Shown here: piece by piece, positions 3,307 to 54,325 of the stretch
Layout: each line of letters begins with the position of its first letter
Position numbering within the stretch: position 1 is the first letter of the stretch
From: an uncultured Ignavibacteria bacterium
GTDB lineage: Bacteria > Zixibacteria > MSB-5A5 > CAIYYT01
DNA length: 64,000 nucleotides
Direction of reading: 5' to 3'
Assembly (NCBI GenBank): GCA_964520555.1
Contig: CAZFNN010000004.1
Location: 128,134 to 192,133 of the forward strand
Notes under the pieces: model-generated
The model's input: the letters and a program-made list of their open reading frames with translations, nothing else
Databases searched by the model: none
Told to the model about the DNA's origin: nothing
Made by a program: the position numbers and the translations under genes

Positions 3307-4851
3307 CTAGCTGTAATCAGCGCAGTTGCACTCTTGCCCCGGCGGTGGTCCGCCGGCGAAAAAGTAATTGATCAGATAGACGGCGTCGGAAATCGAAAGA
3401 GAACCACTGCAATCAGCATCACCGGAACCAGGGTTGTGCGGAGTCGGTGGAGGACCGTTGGGACATCCTTCGCAGGGACCGAATATGTGGTCGATCAAAT
3501 AGACTGCATCGCTAATGTTGATTGCACCGCTACCGTCGGCATCGCCGACCTTCCAGGTGCAGATCGCGAACGTCTCCATATCCTGCGTGTATCCGGTGGC
3601 CTGATTGTCGGCGATGTCGTGCGCAACCACCTTGAGAATGCAGCTATCACAGGCCGGGCCGGTCACGACCCAGTCGAGGCAGTTCGTCATCTTCCTGGGA
3701 ACATTTTCAACAAGTGCTTCCGGGTACCCATCGCGACCATTGTGACGATCCAGATAGAGACTGACCATGGTGCTGGAATCGGCGCCCCAATCTCCGAGCC
3801 ACATGAATTGGACTGTGTCGCCACTGGAGTATCGCAGCGGCCACGGCAGATACCAGACGTCTGCCCAATACGGGCCTCCAGTAAAATACGCTCTGTAGAT
3901 ATGAGAGTCATTCTCGGGTGGCACTGTAATTGGCCAGGCATTCTCGAAATAATCAGGTCCCAAATACGTTCCGTCTGATCGAAGATGTGACCAATGATGA
4001 AAGTAGTACCAGTATCCGTTCAGGTAGAAACTATCATGAGCATACAAATCGTGCTGTTCGAAGATTGCCCATGTCCTGTATACTGGCGAGGGTAGCTCCA
4101 AGTCATCAACTTCGATTGTCCCGCCCTTTCCCTGAACATACTGGTTGCTGATTTCTGCAATACCCGCACCATCGCAATAACTTTTGAAGCCTCGATAAAT
4201 GGCTCCGGCTTCACTTCGCGCGTGAGTGTTGGCAGGATCCGCGAACAAATTCTCTTCGAGCGAGTCACTAAGAAACGATGCTTCAGTCAAGACGGCTATA
4301 CGCCTGTTACGAATGAGCACTGTCAGCCCACAGCTTTTTTTCAGCCCGCGTGCAATGTATGGATCGTCCGGCGCATCCCAATTCTCAAGAAGCCGCAGAT
4401 ATATTTTCTGCGCCATCAGTGAATCGACGTCACGCCATGAGCCGCCCAAGATTGTATCAGACATGCAATGCCATGCTTCTGTGCCCTGAGTGCTGTTGTG
4501 TGCGGTGTCGATGGAGTTGTGATGGGTTGAGATGAAGTACGCGTAGCCTTGCCCGTTGTTTCCCACGTTTGCCGAATCGGCTCTGTCGATGTTCTCAACA
4601 TATACGTCAGTAGACCGTGTCATGCCGACTTGAAACCACCCGCCATAGTCGAAATTAATCGTATCCTTGGCGGCAAGGGCGACCGTTAAGTTCACAGCCT
4701 TCTCATACAGCTTCCCATTAGCTCCCTTACAGCCTAAGGCACTGCCACCATGACCGGGATCTAATAGAATCGTGTTGTCTGCGAAAATTGAATTGGACAA
4801 TAGTAGGAGGATCAGTACAGACGCAATTATCAGTTCTGTTCGAGTTGACAT
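3307..4851 (-). CDS. Secreted N-acetylmuramoyl-L-alanine amidase (Amidase_3) with two C-terminal dockerin-type repeats
   Basis: Signal peptide, then the LLDPGHGG Amidase_3 zinc motif. The C-terminus has DADGSGAINISDAVYLIDHIF and DADCSGSLSISDAVYLINYFFAGG dockerin-I-like Ca-binding repeats. Confidence 0.75.
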   Translation of the reverse strand: MSTRTELIIASVLILLLLSNSIFADNTILLDPGHGGSALGCKGANGKLYEKAVNLTVALAAKDTINFDYGGWFQVGMTRSTDVYVENIDRADSANVGNNGQGYAYFISTHHNSIDTAHNSTQGTEAWHCMSDTILGGSWRDVDSLMAQKIYLRLLENWDAPDDPYIARGLKKSCGLTVLIRNRRIAVLTEASFLSDSLEENLFADPANTHARSEAGAIYRGFKSYCDGAGIAEISNQYVQGKGGTIEVDDLELPSPVYRTWAIFEQHDLYAHDSFYLNGYWYYFHHWSHLRSDGTYLGPDYFENAWPITVPPENDSHIYRAYFTGGPYWADVWYLPWPLRYSSGDTVQFMWLGDWGADSSTMVSLYLDRHNGRDGYPEALVENVPRKMTNCLDWVVTGPACDSCILKVVAHDIADNQATGYTQDMETFAICTWKVGDADGSGAINISDAVYLIDHIFGPCEGCPNGPPPTPHNPGSGDADCSGSLSISDAVYLINYFFAGGPPPGQECNCADYS

Positions 4852-6701: not shown

Positions 6702-8696
6702 ATGAAGAAGCGCAAAATCACCAAGGATGACTTGCTGAAAATGAAGTTCGTCGACGGCGTCGCACTGTCGCCCGACGAATCCGAAATCGCAATCAACGTC
6801 CGCACGATGGCGGCGGACAAAAAGAAATATCATTCGCATTTGTACATGATCAACGTCGACGGCTCCGACCTGCGCCAGTACACGCACGGCGAGGTCTCCG
6901 ATTCGGTGCCGGTGTTTTCACGCGACGGCAAGTGGCTGGCGTTTGTCTCGAAGCGCAACGACAAGAAGGGCATCTACGTCATGCCGCGCCACGGCGGTGA
7001 ACCGCGGCTGCTCAACGATATGGAAGGCGATTTCGGCGACCTGCAGTTTACGCCCGATTCGAAAAAGTTACTGTGCACCTTCCGCAAGCACGACGACGTG
7101 CCCAAGACCAAGGACGGCAAACGCGAAACGCCGGTCTTTCGCCACATCACCCGGTTGTTCCACAAGCTCGACAACTACGGCTTCATGCCGAAAGAAGAAG
7201 CGCAGATCTGGACGATCGACCTAGCGACGGGTAAAGGCACCCAGCTCACCAAGGGCGGCGTCGAGAAGTCCTCGGTGACCTGCTCGCCGGACGGCCGCTG
7301 GATTGCCTATGTCACCAACATCCAACGCAATTTCGATCTCTATCCCGACCTGCAGGATATCTTCGTCATGCCGGCCCACGGCGGCAAGGCACGACTGATC
7401 GCTACGCCCAAAGGTCCGCTCGGATTCGTCAAGTTCTCGCCCGACGGCAAATTCCTCGCCTATCTCGGCCACGACAACCCCGACGACTCCTGGGGCGTGA
7501 CCAACTGGAATGTCTGGAAAGTCCCGGTGCGCGGCGGCAAAGCGGTCAATCTCACCAAACGGCTCGATCGCTACTGCATGGACGAGACGATTTCCGATAC
7601 CGTCGAAGCCCACTCCGGCGGCCTGGTGCACTGGTCACCCGACGGCCGCTGGATCTATTTCGTCCTCAGTGATTCCGGCAGCACCAATCTTTATCGCGTC
7701 TCCGCCAGCGGCCGCGTTATCGAGCCGGTCGTGCGCGGCAAGCAGCATGTGATGGGCGCCTCGCTCAACGGCAAAACGACCAAAGTCGCGCTCGTGATTT
7801 CCAATCACACTATGCCGGCGGAAGTCCATGCGTTCGACCTCGTCAAGCGCAATGCCCGGGTCGAGAAATTGACCGCCTTCAACAAAGCGCTCATGGACGA
7901 AATCATGCTGGCCAAACCGGAGGAGATCATCTTCCGCGGCAAGGGTAACTATCCGGTCCACGGCTGGATCATGAAACCGCCCGACTTCTCGCCGCGCCGC
8001 AAGTATCCCTCGGTGCTGGAGATTCACGGCGGCCCGCGCGTGCAGTACGGCAACAGCTTCTTCCATGAATTCCAGGTGCTCGCCGCTGCCGGCTATGTCG
8101 TGTATTTCAGCAACATCCGCGGCGGTCAGGGTTATGGCGAGAAGCACGCTGACACCATTACCAACGCCTGGGGCACGGTCGATTTCGACGATTGTATGGC
8201 GTTCGCCGACTACATGGAAGCCAAGCCCTACATCAACAAGAAGCGCATGGGCGTGACCGGCGGCAGCTATGGCGGGTACATGACCAACTGGATTGTCGGC
8301 CACACCAACCGTTTTGCCGCAGCAATCACCCAGCGCTCGGTGGTCAACCTCGAGTCGATGTTCGGTTCTTCCGACATCGGCTACTTGATGACGAAAGAAA
8401 TCTTCGGCACACCCTACAACAATCTAGATAACTGGCGCAAGATGTCGCCGCTGACCTACGTCAAGAAGATCCGCACGCCGCTTCTGATTTCGCATTCGGA
8501 GCAGGACTTGCGCTGCCCGATCGAGCAGGGCGAGCAACTGTTCATTTCACTCAAGATGCTCGGCCGGACGGTCGAGATGATCCGTTTCCCGGAAGAACCG
8601 CACGGGCTGTCGCGCTGCGGCCGACCTGATCGGCGGCTGGTGCGGCTCGAGTGGTTCGTCAAGTGGTTTGACCGCTATCTGAAAGGCAAGAAATAG
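6702..8696 (+). CDS. S9-family serine peptidase (acylaminoacyl-peptidase / dipeptidyl-peptidase-like; N-terminal beta-propeller plus alpha/beta hydrolase)
   Basis: GGSYGGYM nucleophile elbow and C-terminal SHSEQDLRCP / EEPHG Asp/His motifs. The RBS AAGGAGAA lies 6 nt upstream of the ATG. Confidence 0.85.
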   Translation: MKKRKITKDDLLKMKFVDGVALSPDESEIAINVRTMAADKKKYHSHLYMINVDGSDLRQYTHGEVSDSVPVFSRDGKWLAFVSKRNDKKGIYVMPRHGGEPRLLNDMEGDFGDLQFTPDSKKLLCTFRKHDDVPKTKDGKRETPVFRHITRLFHKLDNYGFMPKEEAQIWTIDLATGKGTQLTKGGVEKSSVTCSPDGRWIAYVTNIQRNFDLYPDLQDIFVMPAHGGKARLIATPKGPLGFVKFSPDGKFLAYLGHDNPDDSWGVTNWNVWKVPVRGGKAVNLTKRLDRYCMDETISDTVEAHSGGLVHWSPDGRWIYFVLSDSGSTNLYRVSASGRVIEPVVRGKQHVMGASLNGKTTKVALVISNHTMPAEVHAFDLVKRNARVEKLTAFNKALMDEIMLAKPEEIIFRGKGNYPVHGWIMKPPDFSPRRKYPSVLEIHGGPRVQYGNSFFHEFQVLAAAGYVVYFSNIRGGQGYGEKHADTITNAWGTVDFDDCMAFADYMEAKPYINKKRMGVTGGSYGGYMTNWIVGHTNRFAAAITQRSVVNLESMFGSSDIGYLMTKEIFGTPYNNLDNWRKMSPLTYVKKIRTPLLISHSEQDLRCPIEQGEQLFISLKMLGRTVEMIRFPEEPHGLSRCGRPDRRLVRLEWFVKWFDRYLKGKK

Positions 8697-49514: not shown

Positions 49515-50660
49515 TCAGTTGTCCAACTCCGCCAGTCCGTTCTTGCTGACGGCCCCGGGCGGGTTGTCGTTCAAGTACTCGATCGAACGGTTTAGCATCG
49601 CTTCAAAGAACTTCGCGTTGTGCATGCCCCGCGAACGATCCTCTTTGTAGATTACCCAGTTGTATAGCGCGCCGGCAACGGCTACTGGAAGCGTGGCCGT
49701 TATTTGGGCGAAGTCTTCACGTAATGCACCCTGAGCCACCAAAAGGGTTCCCAGCGAGTCGTGCAGCAGGTCAAACTCGGTTTGAATGCCCTCGGTAATG
49801 CCATCGCCGTTAAGATCCCGCAATTCCCAGTCGTCGAAATCGGTAATGGCCGGCTGACCTTGCGGTTGTGGACCATACTCGTCAGCCTCGTTGTGACAGC
49901 CTTGAGTCGCGCAAGTTCCAACCAGAGTGTATTCAGTCCCGTCATGAGCCTCAAAGCGCATGTTGAAACTGTGCCCGCCGACATTGTAGCCGTCATGTTG
50001 CGAGGGATTGCCCATGTGGCAGCCGACACAAGCATCGCGAACAATACTTGCGTGCTCAGTGCTTGGATAGGCAGCGCCCCCAAAGGTGTACGCGTGAGTT
50101 CCTTGAACCATATCGCCTTGCGGCCCGTGGTGCGGGCCAAAACGATTATTGACACCCTTGGTCGGACCAGCGCCAAGGTCAGCCGTCATCGAAGTGCGGG
50201 TGTGGTGACACTGCACGCACAAATTCGCCTGGCCATGATCAAACACAACTCCGTTCTTCAACGTGTACGGCTCATCGATACGCAGCGTCAGATCGCCTCG
50301 TTCATGCGGAGCATGGCACGTGAAACAATGAATCGAACTCACGGTCGATTGGGCCAGCGAGTCTTCTTCACCAGTGCCGATCCAATCCAGGAAGCCCTGG
50401 TGGTTATGGCACTGCTGGCAATCGGAGCCGGGGCGATTGGTGTAGTCAATGCTCGTGCCCGAAGCATGCAGCGAATTTTCCCACTCGCCGCGCGCTTGCA
50501 GCAACGCGCCGTCAAAGCTGGTCTCGCCGTGGCAGGCAAAACAACCGTTCAGGCTCTGGTCGTTGCTGGCAATTTCGTTAACGATTTTGCGCTCGCATCC
50601 TGCGATCAACGCCATCGCCAGAACGAGGGCGACAATGATTAGTGCTTTCAGGATCCTCAT
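49515..50660 (-). CDS. Outer-membrane lipoprotein multiheme cytochrome c (5 CxxCH + 1 CX4CH), MtrC/OmcB-role candidate
   Basis: Lipobox LIAGC. CFACH, CQQCH, CFTCH, CVQCH, CVGCH and C-terminal CATQGCH. AGGAGG RBS 5 nt upstream. Last gene of the three-gene operon. Confidence 0.75.
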   Translation of the reverse strand: MRILKALIIVALVLAMALIAGCERKIVNEIASNDQSLNGCFACHGETSFDGALLQARGEWENSLHASGTSIDYTNRPGSDCQQCHNHQGFLDWIGTGEEDSLAQSTVSSIHCFTCHAPHERGDLTLRIDEPYTLKNGVVFDHGQANLCVQCHHTRTSMTADLGAGPTKGVNNRFGPHHGPQGDMVQGTHAYTFGGAAYPSTEHASIVRDACVGCHMGNPSQHDGYNVGGHSFNMRFEAHDGTEYTLVGTCATQGCHNEADEYGPQPQGQPAITDFDDWELRDLNGDGITEGIQTEFDLLHDSLGTLLVAQGALREDFAQITATLPVAVAGALYNWVIYKEDRSRGMHNAKFFEAMLNRSIEYLNDNPPGAVSKNGLAELDN

Positions 50661-50669
50661 ACTAACCTC

Positions 50670-52220
50670 CTAAAAGGATAATCCTTTAATCAAACTAACT
50701 TCTACCACATTGCCGGTGTAGTAATCCTCGTACACCGACAGATCATCGAAATTGTAAGCATTATATTCGACTTCGCAGCGGTAGTCCTGATAGAACCGCA
50801 GCGCCGCCGCAATCCGAATATTGAAGTGCTCGACGTTGAGATCGCGCTTGCTCTTGTAATAGAGCGCGCCGAAGCTCACCGTCCCGCCCTTGTACTCCTG
50901 GCTGGTGATATCGCCGGAGACCAGATGATCCTGGAACTCGAAGTTCCGGGTCAGGTTTTCGTAGGTCCCCGCCGAGTGCACGTACGCCGCGTTCAGCGTG
51001 GCATACTCCGTCGCGGTAATCACCGCATCAACGGCATAGCGGTACATGTCGGCCTTGGTGCCGAGCTGGTCGTTCTTGCGAATCACGCTCGTCATCTTGT
51101 AGCCGAATGTGCCGATCTTCTCGGGACGATACTTCACCGAAAACGCGTGCCGGTTGCGTTCCTCGTCCCCCAGCAGCCGCACGCCGTCTTCCACTTCTTC
51201 CTTGCGATTACCAAACTGGTAACGGACTTCCACCTCCGGCACCGGCTTGCCCCAGCCGCTGAAGAACAGCGAATTGCCACGCACTTCGTCCTCGAAATCG
51301 TCGTTGACGTCGTACTGATATCCGACCGTCAGGCCGAACCGGCGCAGGTAGTCATACGAGGCATACCCCGCGTGCGTCATGTTGTCGGTCGCGACGAAAT
51401 CGGAATCCGATGACGTGCGGTCGAGGATGCCGATATACTTCAGGCTGATATTCTGCGGCAGATTCAGCACGCCGCCGCCGTAGCCGCGGTTGTTGCTGAT
51501 CGTGAAATCACTCTGGTCAAACTTCGTCTCGAAGTGCCGGAAGCCGCCGATCAACTTGAAGAAATCATACTTCGGGCAGGCAAGAATGCCGCTGAACCGG
51601 TATTCTGCCCGCTTCTGGTCGCGCTGAACATCGTTGTTGTCGGTGTACTGATCGCCGCGGTACTCACCCAGCACCATCGAACCCTTATAATTGAACTGCG
51701 CGCCGAAGTTGTAGTAGGTGCGCTTGTAGTCGACATTGACCTCGGTCGGATCCGGCTTCGGATTGAACAGGTCGGTCGTCGTGCCGGTTCGTTCCATCAT
51801 CAAAAGTCCGCCGAATAGCGTCACATACTCCACCGGCGTCACGCGCAAGTTGGCATGTTCCTGATGCCGCCGCGTGAAGCTGGTACCGTTGAAATTGTAG
51901 ATCCGCCGGAACTGATCATGACCCACCCGCAAATCGAACTGCCCCGGCTTGGCCAGCGACGCGCTCAGATTGCGATTGTTCATGATGATGTTCTTCAGAT
52001 CCGCCCGCACCTGCATGCCATTGTCAAAGCGATAACGGAAGCCGTCGAGCGAAATCGTCGGACCTTCGTACAGATTGAATGTCGGATGGTGAACCGACTG
52101 GTTGCCCTCTTCATCCAGATAGACGTAGCCGACGCGCACCTCGCCGGAGCCGGTAGCCGCAACGGCCACTGCCGCCAGCATCAGGAGGGCGCCCAACAGA
52201 AACGATAACTTCAGTTTCAT
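50670..52220 (-). CDS. Outer-membrane beta-barrel protein (MtrB/OmbB-role porin of a porin-cytochrome complex)
   Basis: Signal peptide MKLKLSFLLGALLMLAAVAVA. Alternating aromatic/hydrophilic strands throughout and a C-terminal ...LIKGLSF. No heme sites. AAGGAGGGAG RBS. Sits between the two cytochrome genes with 9-12-nt gaps. Confidence 0.7.
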   Translation of the reverse strand: MKLKLSFLLGALLMLAAVAVAATGSGEVRVGYVYLDEEGNQSVHHPTFNLYEGPTISLDGFRYRFDNGMQVRADLKNIIMNNRNLSASLAKPGQFDLRVGHDQFRRIYNFNGTSFTRRHQEHANLRVTPVEYVTLFGGLLMMERTGTTTDLFNPKPDPTEVNVDYKRTYYNFGAQFNYKGSMVLGEYRGDQYTDNNDVQRDQKRAEYRFSGILACPKYDFFKLIGGFRHFETKFDQSDFTISNNRGYGGGVLNLPQNISLKYIGILDRTSSDSDFVATDNMTHAGYASYDYLRRFGLTVGYQYDVNDDFEDEVRGNSLFFSGWGKPVPEVEVRYQFGNRKEEVEDGVRLLGDEERNRHAFSVKYRPEKIGTFGYKMTSVIRKNDQLGTKADMYRYAVDAVITATEYATLNAAYVHSAGTYENLTRNFEFQDHLVSGDITSQEYKGGTVSFGALYYKSKRDLNVEHFNIRIAAALRFYQDYRCEVEYNAYNFDDLSVYEDYYTGNVVEVSLIKGLSF

Positions 52221-52231
52221 TCTCTCCCTCC

Positions 52232-53185
52232 TTAGTGCTTCAGGTTGTCGTGACAACCGGAGGCGTAGCAGTTGGCGTAAAGGGTGGTCGTCAGCATCGG
52301 GTCAAGAAACAGCTTGTTGTCGTTCGAACCGTGGAATTGCGTGTGGCAATTCACGCAGTCGATCTTGACCGCCATGCCGGAATGGGCAACGCGATGGCCG
52401 GGCGGCACACCGTGGCACTGAATGCAGACACCGTTGCCGGGCTGCAACAGGAGGCGCTCATTCGGCGAACCGTGCGGACTGTGGCACTCCACGCAGCCGC
52501 CGCCGTCGACCAGGTGGTTGTAGTTGACCGGATGCTCGTAGACGTGCGGCCCCGCCACATCCGAGTGGCAGTTCTGGCACGTCCAGTCGAACCCCTTGAC
52601 CAACTGCATATCCTGGCGGCTATTCATCGGGTGGCAGTCGGCACACGCCACGCTGCCTTCGTGCAGCGGATGCGCCGAGCGCGCGCTGAACTGGGCGCCG
52701 ACCGTTTGATGGCAGCCGAGACAGTAATTTTCGCTGTCATCCTTCACCAGCGCCGCATTCTCATTCCCGTGAATCGAATGGCAACTTGCACAATCCAGCC
52801 CGGCGCGGCCGTGCGGATCGGTCGTCACCATCAGAGCCTGATGCTCGTTCTGGTGGCACGAGGCGCAGGCATTCGCCTGCTCGGCAAACGGCAGCTTGCT
52901 TGGCACCACCGGCTTGTTGGCTTCCGGATCATCCAAGTGCGTCTCATAGCCGCCGTGACACCCGACACAGGAAACCGTGATGCCGCGAGCACCCGCTGCG
53001 GGAAGCGCGTGTCTTGATCCGAGAAGATTGTCCGCCATGTCCTGATGACACTCGAGGCAAGCCTCATTCGACGCACTCGTGGTTCCCTCCGCGGTCAGCG
53101 GAACGGTTGCCAGGAGCGCACCGAACAAGCCCAGCAGCGATATGACGATCAGGATGGGGGCGGGTTTCTTCAGTCTTCTATTCAT
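52232..53185 (-). CDS. Periplasmic multiheme cytochrome c (10 CxxCH + 1 CX4CH), MtrA/DmsE/OmaB-like
   Basis: 317 aa with signal peptide. CLECH, CVGCH, CASCH, CASCH, CLGCH, CADCH, CQNCH, CVECH, CIQCH, CVNCH and CYASGCH. Spacing of about 25-30 aa per heme is typical of MtrA. Confidence 0.8.
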   Translation of the reverse strand: MNRRLKKPAPILIVISLLGLFGALLATVPLTAEGTTSASNEACLECHQDMADNLLGSRHALPAAGARGITVSCVGCHGGYETHLDDPEANKPVVPSKLPFAEQANACASCHQNEHQALMVTTDPHGRAGLDCASCHSIHGNENAALVKDDSENYCLGCHQTVGAQFSARSAHPLHEGSVACADCHPMNSRQDMQLVKGFDWTCQNCHSDVAGPHVYEHPVNYNHLVDGGGCVECHSPHGSPNERLLLQPGNGVCIQCHGVPPGHRVAHSGMAVKIDCVNCHTQFHGSNDNKLFLDPMLTTTLYANCYASGCHDNLKH

Positions 53186-53247
53186 ATTAACCCCGTTGGT
53201 AAGTAAAAAAGTCCATTTTCATGAAACAGATTCGCGAACGTCCTGTA

Positions 53248-53263
53248 TGTGAAATCTGTCACA
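53248..53263. promoter_or_regulatory. CRP/FNR-family (CRP-type) binding site, perfect TGTGA-N6-TCACA
   Basis: TGTGAAATCTGTCACA. Centred about 70 nt upstream of the operon ATG (53185), so about -41 if the TSS is about 30 nt upstream (class II position). Confidence 0.55.
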
Positions 53264-53366
53264 AAGTTCTCTTGTTTATGATCTGCAATAAAGTCGGTGC
53301 GACGAGATCGTGTCAATAAAAAAGTATTATGAAATTGTCGGCTTTATCCATCTTGTTGTATTTTAT

Positions 53367-53382
53367 CGTGAAAACTATCACA
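53367..53382. promoter_or_regulatory. Second CRP-type site (CGTGA-N6-TCACA)
   Basis: CGTGAAAACTATCACA, 119 bp upstream of site 1, same half-site spacing. The flanks of the two sites are similar (…GTGAAAnCTnTCACAAAnTT…). Confidence 0.45.
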
Positions 53383-53557
53383 AACTTTAGAAATAAGACC
53401 TCAATAATTCGACATATTCATCGAGATTTCTGCTAATTCCGCTCGGAATTTACGATCGAATTAGTTGGAATTATTGGTTATTCCGCAAATGCCCCGCGCA
53501 ATTGCCCCGCTTTGGTGCAAGTTCATCTCGTCACAAGCTACATATCGGGAGACTTAA

Positions 53558-54325
53558 CTATATCGAGGTAATCTCGCCGACGTTGGCGTAAGTGTAGTTC
53601 GGACGATATGGATAACCGTCTATGTCGTCAGCAGTTGTAACACCCGACAACACCAATATCGTGTCCAGTCCCGACTGGATGCCGGCGATGATGTCGGTCT
53701 CCATATTATCTCCGATCATGATCGTCGTCTCCGAATGTGCTCCCAACTGGCGTAGCGCCGCACGCATCATGTATGGATTCGGCTTGCCGATGTAGAACGG
53801 TTTACGATGAGTTACCCTCTCAATCGGGGCAGCCAGAGCCCCGCAACTCGGGAAGCCGGAGGGTCCGGAAACGTCGGGATTAGTCGCAATAAACCGGGCA
53901 CCATGACGTATTAGTCTGATCGCCTTCTCAATCATCTCAAAGTTGTAAGACCGGGTCTCTCCCAGAACGACGAAATCCGGATCCTGCTCCGTCATCTTGA
54001 ATCCGTGTTCGTACAGGGCGTGCGTCAGCGCCCCTTCGCCGATCACAAAAACTTTGTCACCGGCACCCTGACTTTCCAGGAATGCCGCCGTCGCCATCGC
54101 CGATGTGTAAAAATGCTCTGCCGGAACATCTAATCCGGCCTTGCGAACCCGGTGACTCAAGTCGGACGGCGTCAAGGATGGGTAATTCGTAATGAAGAGA
54201 AACGGAATCTCCTGCTCAATCAGCGATTCGACGAATCCCTTGGCCCCTTCGATCAGGTTGTTATCCCAGATGATCACGCCGTCCATATCGCACAGGACGG
54301 CTCGATTCTTTTCGCACTTGATCAT
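53558..54325 (-). CDS. HAD-superfamily hydrolase, subfamily IIA (NagD/UmpH-like phosphatase)
   Basis: DMDGVI motif I, the ITN motif II and GDNMETDIIAG motif IV. GC is about 55%. Confidence 0.8.
   Translation of the reverse strand: MIKCEKNRAVLCDMDGVIIWDNNLIEGAKGFVESLIEQEIPFLFITNYPSLTPSDLSHRVRKAGLDVPAEHFYTSAMATAAFLESQGAGDKVFVIGEGALTHALYEHGFKMTEQDPDFVVLGETRSYNFEMIEKAIRLIRHGARFIATNPDVSGPSGFPSCGALAAPIERVTHRKPFYIGKPNPYMMRAALRQLGAHSETTIMIGDNMETDIIAGIQSGLDTILVLSGVTTADDIDGYPYRPNYTYANVGEITSI

Follow-up and report, generated by a model that had tools for sequence, protein, structure and literature searches.

The stretch analysed here, a 64-kb window (64,000 nucleotides) of contig CAZFNN010000004.1 from an uncultured bacterium, contains an operon for a predicted Mtr-type porin-cytochrome conduit, and the intergenic region ahead of this operon holds two inverted repeats of the form TGTGA-N6-TCACA. 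It is almost certain that the two palindromes are bound by a dimeric transcription factor with control over the conduit operon. They bracket a conserved -35 block of the sigma70 type, and the perfect copy, which is the one closer to the first gene, is predicted to lie shortly downstream of the transcription start, where it probably acts in repression. As for the factor itself, the flanks of the repeats and a second target in related genomes would lead us to name Rex, with slightly more confidence than doubt. The elements of the intergenic region on which the argument turns are the following, in the order in which the operon is read.

53367 to 53382, minus strand: predicted distal operator, operon-strand sequence aaGTTTGTGATAGTTTTCACGATAaaa, one mismatch (TCACG)
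53317 to 53324, minus strand: T-tract before the predicted -35
53311 to 53316, minus strand: predicted -35, TTGACA, called from conservation
53287 to 53293, minus strand: predicted -10 region, CTTTAT (17-bp spacing) or TTTATT (18-bp spacing), weak in this genome
53248 to 53263, minus strand: predicted proximal operator, operon-strand sequence cTTTGTGACAGATTTCACAtac, a perfect TGTGA-N6-TCACA

The genes on both sides of the intergenic region, the conduit operon among them, are on the minus strand, a detail to be added to the initial annotation. On the forward strand, the sites read TGTGAAATCTGTCACA (53248-53263) and CGTGAAAACTATCACA (53367-53382). The description given there of the repeats is confirmed: a perfect TGTGA-N6-TCACA does lie about 70 nt before the ATG (from the centre of the palindrome to the A of this codon, at 53185, the distance is 70.5 nt), and a near-copy with one mismatch lies 119 bp further up, centre to centre, with the flanks alike at both sites (TAT..GTGAAA / TCACAAAsTT). 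The judgement that such an arrangement is very unlikely to arise by chance is likewise borne out. When the intergenic sequence of 372 bp was shuffled 200,000 times, the fraction of shuffles with a perfect site was 4.4e-4, and the fraction with both a perfect site and a second near-site was 1e-5. Across the whole window, these two are the only matches to TGTGA-N6-TCACA with at most one mismatch, and a weight matrix built from all collected sites finds no further window position scoring 11 or more. The base composition had been described less accurately. The window is 58.4% GC rather than about 63%, and the figure of about 35% given for the AT-rich block fits its core (34.5%) but not the block as a whole (38.2%), which is the sole 200-nt stretch below 42% GC in the window.

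Homologous loci (L numbers below) were gathered by exact-protein look-ups, which supplied the closest relatives, and by collection scans; a metagenome scan with the MtrA protein gave 8 loci, few of them useful. Both sites, with invariant half-sites, are found in relatives whose MtrA is 97% (L082/L089), 74% (L087) and 71% (L088) identical to that of the window. In these relatives (L082, L089, L087 and L088) the distal site is conserved together with its flanks, and the intergenic DNA outside the sites diverges. Four lineages have 119 bp between the two sites, and L088 has 118 bp. At lower MtrA identities of 60% (L097), 58% (L102) and 53% (L101), the proximal site is still perfect, while the distal site is reduced to a degenerate remnant. 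In the proximal site, all ten core bases are invariant throughout these relatives (L082/L089, L087, L088, L097, L102 and L101), and the 6-nt spacer varies. Given that the half-sites are fixed and the spacer is free, the conservation points to a dimeric DNA-binding protein rather than to an RNA stem. The palindrome is absent from L099/L100 (57% MtrA identity) and from L091-L093. Since the palindromes are real, far beyond chance expectation and phylogenetically conserved, we take them to be binding sites of a dimeric transcription factor, and that both serve as operators is in our judgement very probable.

The promoter was called from conservation across the loci, and the transcription start, at about 53279-53281, is a prediction. 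In a seven-lineage alignment, the invariant columns are limited to TTTTT-TTGAC and TTGTGA...TTCACA; that is, TTTTT-R-TTGAC is the sole invariant block besides the operator. The same block is kept in homologous loci without the palindrome (L099, L091 and L093). In all seven lineages the -35 block, a spacing of 17 bp and a -10-like hexamer stand between both sites. This hexamer is CTTTAT in the present genome and CATAAT, TAGTAT, TAAAAT, TAAACT, TATTCT, CATCCT or TTACAT in the others of the 8 loci compared, with T at position 6 in 8/8 and A at position 2 in 6/8. A scan of the leader for consensus sigma70 promoters and terminators called nothing; the sigma70 promoter was missed because the -10 here lacks the A at position 2. 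Sequences of the form TTGAC-N16-18-TAnnnT lie directly upstream of several other genes of the window, from which we conclude that the organism uses standard sigma70 promoters and not those of the Bacteroidetes type. The promoter assignment therefore has three grounds: (I) the block is kept in palindrome-free loci; (II) standard promoters occur elsewhere in the window; (III) the operators stand at a constant distance from it. A Bacteroidetes-type -33/-7 promoter (TAnnTTTG overlapping the half-site) was also considered and was rejected, being inconsistent among the sites in an organism with ordinary TTGACA/TAnnnT promoters. A further conserved block, GACAATTTCATAATAC (53317-53339), lies directly upstream of the T-tract and -35; its pattern GACAAnTTT is also present in L097, L102 and L101. 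The block may serve as an UP-like element, or a different factor may bind there.

Relative to the predicted start, the centre of the proximal site lies at about +25 (+22 to +27 across the lineages) and that of the distal site at about -94. The initial annotation had named the location of the sites inside the transcript as evidence that would speak against its proposal, and the perfect site does fall inside the transcript as predicted here. The region had also been presented as a 370-bp leader. It is indeed an intergenic block upstream of the conduit operon, but only about 95 nt of the 372 bp are predicted to be transcribed, the remainder being promoter and upstream DNA. L099, which is without the palindrome, has the same promoter and a leader about 45 nt shorter.

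With a perfect operator about 25 nt downstream of the start of a strong-looking promoter, repression is the most likely mode of control, and we consider it probable that the proximal operator represses. We propose that one dimeric helix-turn-helix regulator would bind both inverted repeats on either side of the sigma70-type promoter. The promoter itself, with its T-tract and TTGACA, looks constitutively strong, and a regulator bound to the +25 operator would block initiation or early elongation. The -94 operator, in this sub-lineage, may assist by cooperative binding or by formation of a 119-bp loop; the one feature that suggests cooperation or looping is the conserved 119-bp spacing. The operators OE and OI of the looping repressor GalR, which are about 113 bp apart and bracket a promoter, offer a parallel. 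Here too, one of two like operators stands before the core promoter and the other after it, and their distance, about 119 bp, is conserved. Unlike in that pair, looping is here purely inferential, the 119 bp do not make an integral number of helical turns, and several lineages with the proximal site are without the distal one.

Rex is a repressor that senses NADH/NAD+. Its consensus operator is TTGTGAAW4TTCACAA (PMC2883068) and has also been given as TTGTGAANNNNTTCACAA (PMC5317091). The proximal site, TTGTGACAGATTTCACAT, and the distal site, TTGTGATAGTTTTCACGA, have 2 mismatches each at the 14 specified Rex positions; in the 15 collected sites TTGTGA is invariant, most end in TCACAA, and 0-2 mismatches are found at these 14 positions. 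The flanks of the sites are hence of the Rex type, TTGTGA...TCACAA, and the reverse of those in the CRP consensus (AAATGTGA...TCACATTT). Rex has been reported in Calditrichaeota, a related phylum, where Caldithrix abyssi has rex beside a hydrogenase operon with a cTGTGAATCAATTCACAt site (PMC5317091). In Calderihabitans maritimus, a Rex-like TTGTGA-N6-TCACAA is located upstream of hyd-3b and of three multihaem cytochrome genes, whose products are implicated in extracellular electron transfer (PMC7306483). Of known systems, the predicted Rex regulon of C. maritimus comes closest, and the Rex site of C. abyssi is also close. The sites described here resemble these in their 18-bp TTGTGA-N6-TCACAA inverted repeat with an A/T-rich centre, in their predicted location at or just downstream of a sigma70 promoter, in the presence of more than one operator per promoter, and in targets that dispose of reducing equivalents (a group 3b hydrogenase and cytochromes for extracellular electron transfer). 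They differ in that they occur without a linked rex gene and belong to a Gram-negative Mtr-type conduit of the uncultured phylum Zixibacteria. Position 7 of the left half, moreover, is T or C in the mtr operators where it would be A, and the two operators stand on either side of the promoter with 119 bp between them.

Hydrogenases linked to NAD(P) are among the classic targets of Rex, and a hydrogenase operon provides the second target of the motif. The Zixibacteria contig L005 has a perfect site in the region that separates the mtr operon from a divergent operon. The latter carries genes for a Fer4_22 protein, a 155-aa cyclic-nucleotide-binding protein, an NAD-binding iron-sulphur protein and the small and large subunits of a nickel-iron (NiFe) hydrogenase. 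This is a group 3b 'sulfhydrogenase', which is NAD(P)-linked. Four further Zixibacteria copies of the operon were fetched (L103-L106). In all five loci, the promoter TTGACA-17-TAtcTT is followed 8-11 nt later by TTGTGAAAnnwwTCACAa, a site that may be written TTGTGAAA-N4-wTCACAa and that has a perfect Rex left half. Relative to the predicted starts, this operator spans about +2 to +20, ahead of the operon for HydB, HydG and the NiFe small and large subunits, a layout typical of a Rex operator (TTGTGAA-N4-TTCACAA). When a matrix was made from the mtr sites alone, the hydrogenase site was the top match in each of the four newly fetched loci; it was the sole match scoring at least 15 in L104-L106, and L103 had a second, weaker match at 3497 with a score of 19.5. 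A Rex regulon is expected to comprise NAD(H)-linked redox and energy genes, and the motif is found at the hydrogenase operon in the five loci and, as a weaker match, in L011. There, the related palindrome cTTGTGGAAAATTTCACGAAa (L011:4138-4159) lies about 100 nt upstream of a gene for a 650-aa fusion of a multihaem cytochrome c with cytochrome b561, possibly the inner-membrane quinol oxidoreductase of the same electron-transfer chain; the genome of L011 also holds an mtrA-like cluster.

Taken together, the position after a perfect -35, the Rex flanks and the hydrogenase as a second target favour Rex, or at least a repressor. If Rex is the repressor, the operon would be off at low NADH. Upon a build-up of reductant, for example when electron acceptors are short, NADH would free Rex from the operators and the conduit would be expressed. 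The group 3b hydrogenase, which carries the same operator in related Zixibacteria, would then be expressed with the conduit, and both would serve as sinks for excess electrons.

Some further features of the hydrogenase loci may be recorded here. In every hydrogenase operon examined, a stand-alone gene for the 155-aa cyclic-nucleotide-binding protein, which has no DNA-binding domain, lies between the HydB-like and HydG-like genes (L005:3250-3717, minus strand; L103:9180-9647; L104:9148-9615; L105:9158-9625; L106:9170-9637). One Zixibacteria lineage (L103:1-7182, L104:1-7001 and L005) has the mtr-like operon duplicated, with a TetR-family gene between the copies, and the duplicated operon stands back to back with the group 3b hydrogenase operon. 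In this lineage it is the hydrogenase promoter that has the palindrome, and the promoter of the first mtrA is without it. In L105, from the chromosome of Zixibacteria bin25, a run of 100 N bases (7567-7666) upstream of the hydrogenase operon makes the regulatory region partly unreadable.

Several points weigh against repression by Rex. The main weakness of the argument is that the transcription start is predicted and not mapped. The -10 is poor in this genome (CTTTAT), and the promoter could need an activator. Two distant Zixibacteria-like loci, L013 and L021, have a similar palindrome ahead of the -35, at about -60 and -52 respectively, where an activator would more readily be expected. The 119 bp between the sites correspond to 11.3 turns at 10.5 bp per turn, which is not integral. 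The base after TTGTGA at the mtr sites is T or C, while Rex prefers A, and TGTGAT is the form preferred by CRP; the motif alone cannot separate Rex from the Crp/Fnr family. A phmmer search with two Rex sequences as queries, which covered the 64-kb window and fetched loci of about 1.5 Mb in total, found no rex gene. Finally, the equivalent operons of Acidobacteria are evidently under a Crp-type activator. Among the matches listed, about 30 Acidobacteria loci (L023-L081) have an mtrA homolog with a divergent gene for a protein with cNMP_binding and HTH_Crp_2 domains (for example L034:9350-10060, L052:9300-10060, L059 and L027), and the recognition helix of this regulator, RETVTR, is like the RETVGR of CRP. 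The shared intergenic region contains two TGTGAT-N4-nTCAC sites, TGTGATGGGCCTCACG and TGTGATGGACATCACC, with a usual separation of about 127-131 bp. Between the proximal site and a conserved TAnTCT downstream of it there are 22 nt, as in class II geometry, and there is no -35; FNR-type TTGAT-N4-ATCAA boxes are absent from these intergenic regions. The two systems are alike in the homologous decaheme gene (33-38% identity), in the two TGTGAy-N4-nTCAC sites and in a distal site that ends in TCACG. They are unlike in that the Acidobacteria encode the regulator next door, and their sites are GC-rich in the centre, are without the TT/AA flanks, include a proximal site in class II position and serve divergent promoters. 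Our literature search found no description of divergent Crp/Fnr-family genes beside acidobacterial mtrA homologs, nor any paper linking Rex or CRP to Zixibacteria or acidobacterial mtr genes. When all of these points are counted, the complete proposal, with operators bracketing the promoter, repression, and Rex as the regulator of the mtrA-porin-mtrC-like operon, stands in our estimate evenly balanced between right and wrong.

Its principal rival, a serious one although we regard it as rather unlikely, is that a Crp/Fnr-family regulator sensing cAMP or another cyclic nucleotide, oxygen, redox state or a small molecule binds both sites; it could activate from the distal site, at about -93.5 and on the class I helical face, and repress or fine-tune from the proximal one. 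TGTGA-N6-TCACA is after all the canonical CRP core, to which left halves of the form TGTGAT/C are well suited, and the weak -10 of this genome, the upstream placement of the sites in L013 and L021, and the divergent regulator gene with its similar, class II sites in Acidobacteria would all suit an activator, yet the TT...AA flanks run opposite to the CRP consensus and the geometry does not agree. CRP activates from centres at -41.5 (class II) or at -61.5, -71.5, -82.5 and -92.5 (class I). The perfect and most widely conserved site here is downstream of the predicted start; the distal site could be a far class I site, but it is missing in 3 of the 7 lineages. We also looked for a second promoter, one relative to which the perfect site would be centred at -41.5. 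This idea was rejected for want of conservation: the window, L082 and L087 have a -10-like hexamer 21-23 nt after the site, but L088, L097, L102 and L101 have none there. Moreover, a perfect TTGACA with an upstream T-tract, invariant across the lineages, is unlike CRP-dependent promoters, and the site at the hydrogenase promoters falls where only repression makes sense. No Crp/Fnr gene was found in the window, nor in the 10 kb to either side of the operon in the Zixibacteria-like loci, in which cyclic-nucleotide-binding proteins were seen only without a helix-turn-helix domain; crp/fnr genes were seen only in the Acidobacteria loci. In Shewanella oneidensis, CRP activates PomcA/PmtrC from degenerate class I sites at -61.5/-60.5 in promoters without a -35, with binding detected by electrophoretic mobility shift assay (PMC4417206). 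The system described here shares with that one the Mtr conduit operon and the TGTGA-N6-TCACA core motif family, but here the -35 is perfect and the perfect site is predicted to lie at about +25, and therefore activation of the Shewanella type does not fit. The initial annotation had suggested control by a CRP/FNR-family regulator on the Shewanella model. The regulator sites are real, and the family is a possible one in view of the Acidobacteria; the activator geometry, however, does not fit the predicted sigma70-type promoter between the sites, its perfect -35, the Rex flanks and the repressor position at the hydrogenase promoters. An operator for some other family, such as a TetR-family protein or an unrecognised one, is improbable. 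Many helix-turn-helix families use inverted repeats, and in L103 and L104 a TetR_N gene does lie between the mtrC-like gene and the second mtrA-like gene; in L103 it is preceded, at a distance of about 170 nt, by a match of moderate strength (score 19.5). This match is absent in L104, so the TetR gene was rejected as the regulator, and no TetR gene is found near the operon in the window, L082, L087 or L088. The 5-6-5 architecture, the GTGA/TCAC core and the TT/AA flanks are characteristic of Rex and CRP, and the consensus layouts of LacI, GalR, ArgR, TyrR and NtcA differ from these sites in spacing or core. Lastly, the proximal palindrome might act in the mRNA as a leader hairpin of 5-6 bp that affects stability, translation or termination, in keeping with its place inside the predicted 5' untranslated region, where the leader holds a further conserved block. 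We consider this highly improbable: an Rfam scan of the leader gives no family match, the folding of the predicted leader is not better than that of shuffled versions (z = +0.46), and in its minimum-energy structure the palindrome does not form a hairpin. Variation is confined to the loop, the stem bases being invariant with no covariation, there is no terminator-like T-run, and a like motif lies upstream of the promoter and another overlaps the start at the hydrogenase promoters.

The operon downstream of the predicted Rex-type operators comprises three genes, which are listed here together with the conserved elements of the leader.

53200 to 53220, minus strand: conserved leader block GAAAATGGACTTTTTTACTTA, with the pattern AAnATGGAC-N5/6-T[A/G]CTCA
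53191 to 53196, minus strand: ribosome-binding region ACGGGG, invariant
53183 to 53185, minus strand: ATG of the mtrA-like gene, invariant
52232 to 53185, minus strand: MtrA/DmsE-family periplasmic decaheme cytochrome c, first gene of the operon, 317 aa with 10 CXXCH
50670 to 52220, minus strand: predicted outer-membrane beta-barrel porin, MtrB/PioB-like, 516 aa from the ATG at 52220, with AAGGAGG before it
49515 to 50660, minus strand: lipoprotein multihaem cytochrome, the MtrC-like outer component, 381 aa

The mtrA-like product has ten invariant CXXCH motifs and a Pfam match to Paired_CXXCH_1 (1.4e-27), and its homologs are named DmsE-family decaheme cytochromes. The match of the porin to MtrB_PioB is below threshold (21.8 bits against a cut-off of 23). 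The MtrC-like lipoprotein contains 5 CXXCH and one CX3-4CH, a LIAGC lipobox and a weak Pfam match to Mtrc-MtrF_II-IV_dom. A decaheme MtrA/DmsE protein followed by a predicted beta-barrel porin and a predicted outer lipoprotein cytochrome is the composition of an Mtr-type porin-cytochrome conduit, and the gene order is kept in all homologous loci. MtrAB clusters in Zixibacteria have been noted before (PMC3903129). The homologs carry the labels Zixibacteria, Krumholzibacteria and Ignavibacteria, and a neighbouring gene of the window encodes a type IX secretion tail; the organism accordingly falls within the FCB group and resembles Zixibacteria most. On the upstream side, the neighbour is a HAD-family hydrolase gene (53558-54325) with its own promoter, TTGACT-16-TATTAT. 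In L088 (8142-9659) and L099 (14907-16418, minus strand), a gene of about 505 aa for a NapC/NirT-family (Cytochrom_NNT) multihaem cytochrome adjoins the mtr-like operon; its product is a candidate inner-membrane quinol dehydrogenase for the conduit, and no palindrome was found upstream of the gene in either locus.

The leader block lies 15-35 nt upstream of the mtrA start and is conserved in the window, L082, L087, L088, L097 and L102. The ATG within it has led gene callers to add about 10-13 residues to MtrA in L082, L088 and L097 (329-aa MtrA). An upstream open reading frame was rejected, because a 1-nt indel between the window and L082 shifts the frame, and so was a sigma54 element (ATGGAC...TGCT), in which the GG-GC spacing is 3 nt short; the block matches neither sigma54 nor sigma70 elements.

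The motif also turns up inside cytochrome genes, where the codons of CXXCH (TGT nnn nnn TGT CAC A) create near-perfect matches to TGTGA-N6-TCACA. Such matches are found at L082:9506-9521 and at the equivalent mtrA positions, at L015:11940 and at L021:13075-14107. Those within mtrA genes, for example TGT GTC GGG TGT CAC, were set aside for this reason, as were the perfect matches in L015 and L016, which are in coding sequence (less certainly so in L016, probably in a minus-strand open reading frame). Genome-wide motif scans of cytochrome-rich genomes must therefore mask coding matches.

The switching of Mtr-type conduits is known mainly from Shewanella, through cAMP-CRP, and we know of nothing on conduit regulation in uncultured groups such as Zixibacteria, which have repeatedly been implicated in sediment iron cycling. 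An operator of this kind is well known; the instance is new. The conserved pair makes for a testable hypothesis, as it supplies a DNA probe, a candidate sensor (of the NADH/NAD+ ratio) and a predicted partner in the group 3b hydrogenase. The practical value is modest, namely a motif for regulon prediction in metagenome-assembled genomes, along with the warning that TGTGA-N6-TCACA alone need not mean CRP. Homologous conduits would appear to be wired differently by phylum: in Acidobacteria through a Crp-type activator in class II position, and here through an operator of the repressor type that lies downstream. The broader proposal, that Rex gates both an Mtr-type conduit and a cytoplasmic NAD(P)-linked hydrogenase in Zixibacteria through two bracketing operators, possibly with a repression loop, is one that we put forward tentatively, believing it somewhat more likely to fail than to hold in every part. 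If true, it would be the first link of Rex to a Gram-negative porin-cytochrome conduit; H2 production and electron transfer to the outside of the cell would be regulated together as overflow valves through which surplus reductant is discharged, and the control of mineral respiration in an uncultured phylum would become open to concrete study.

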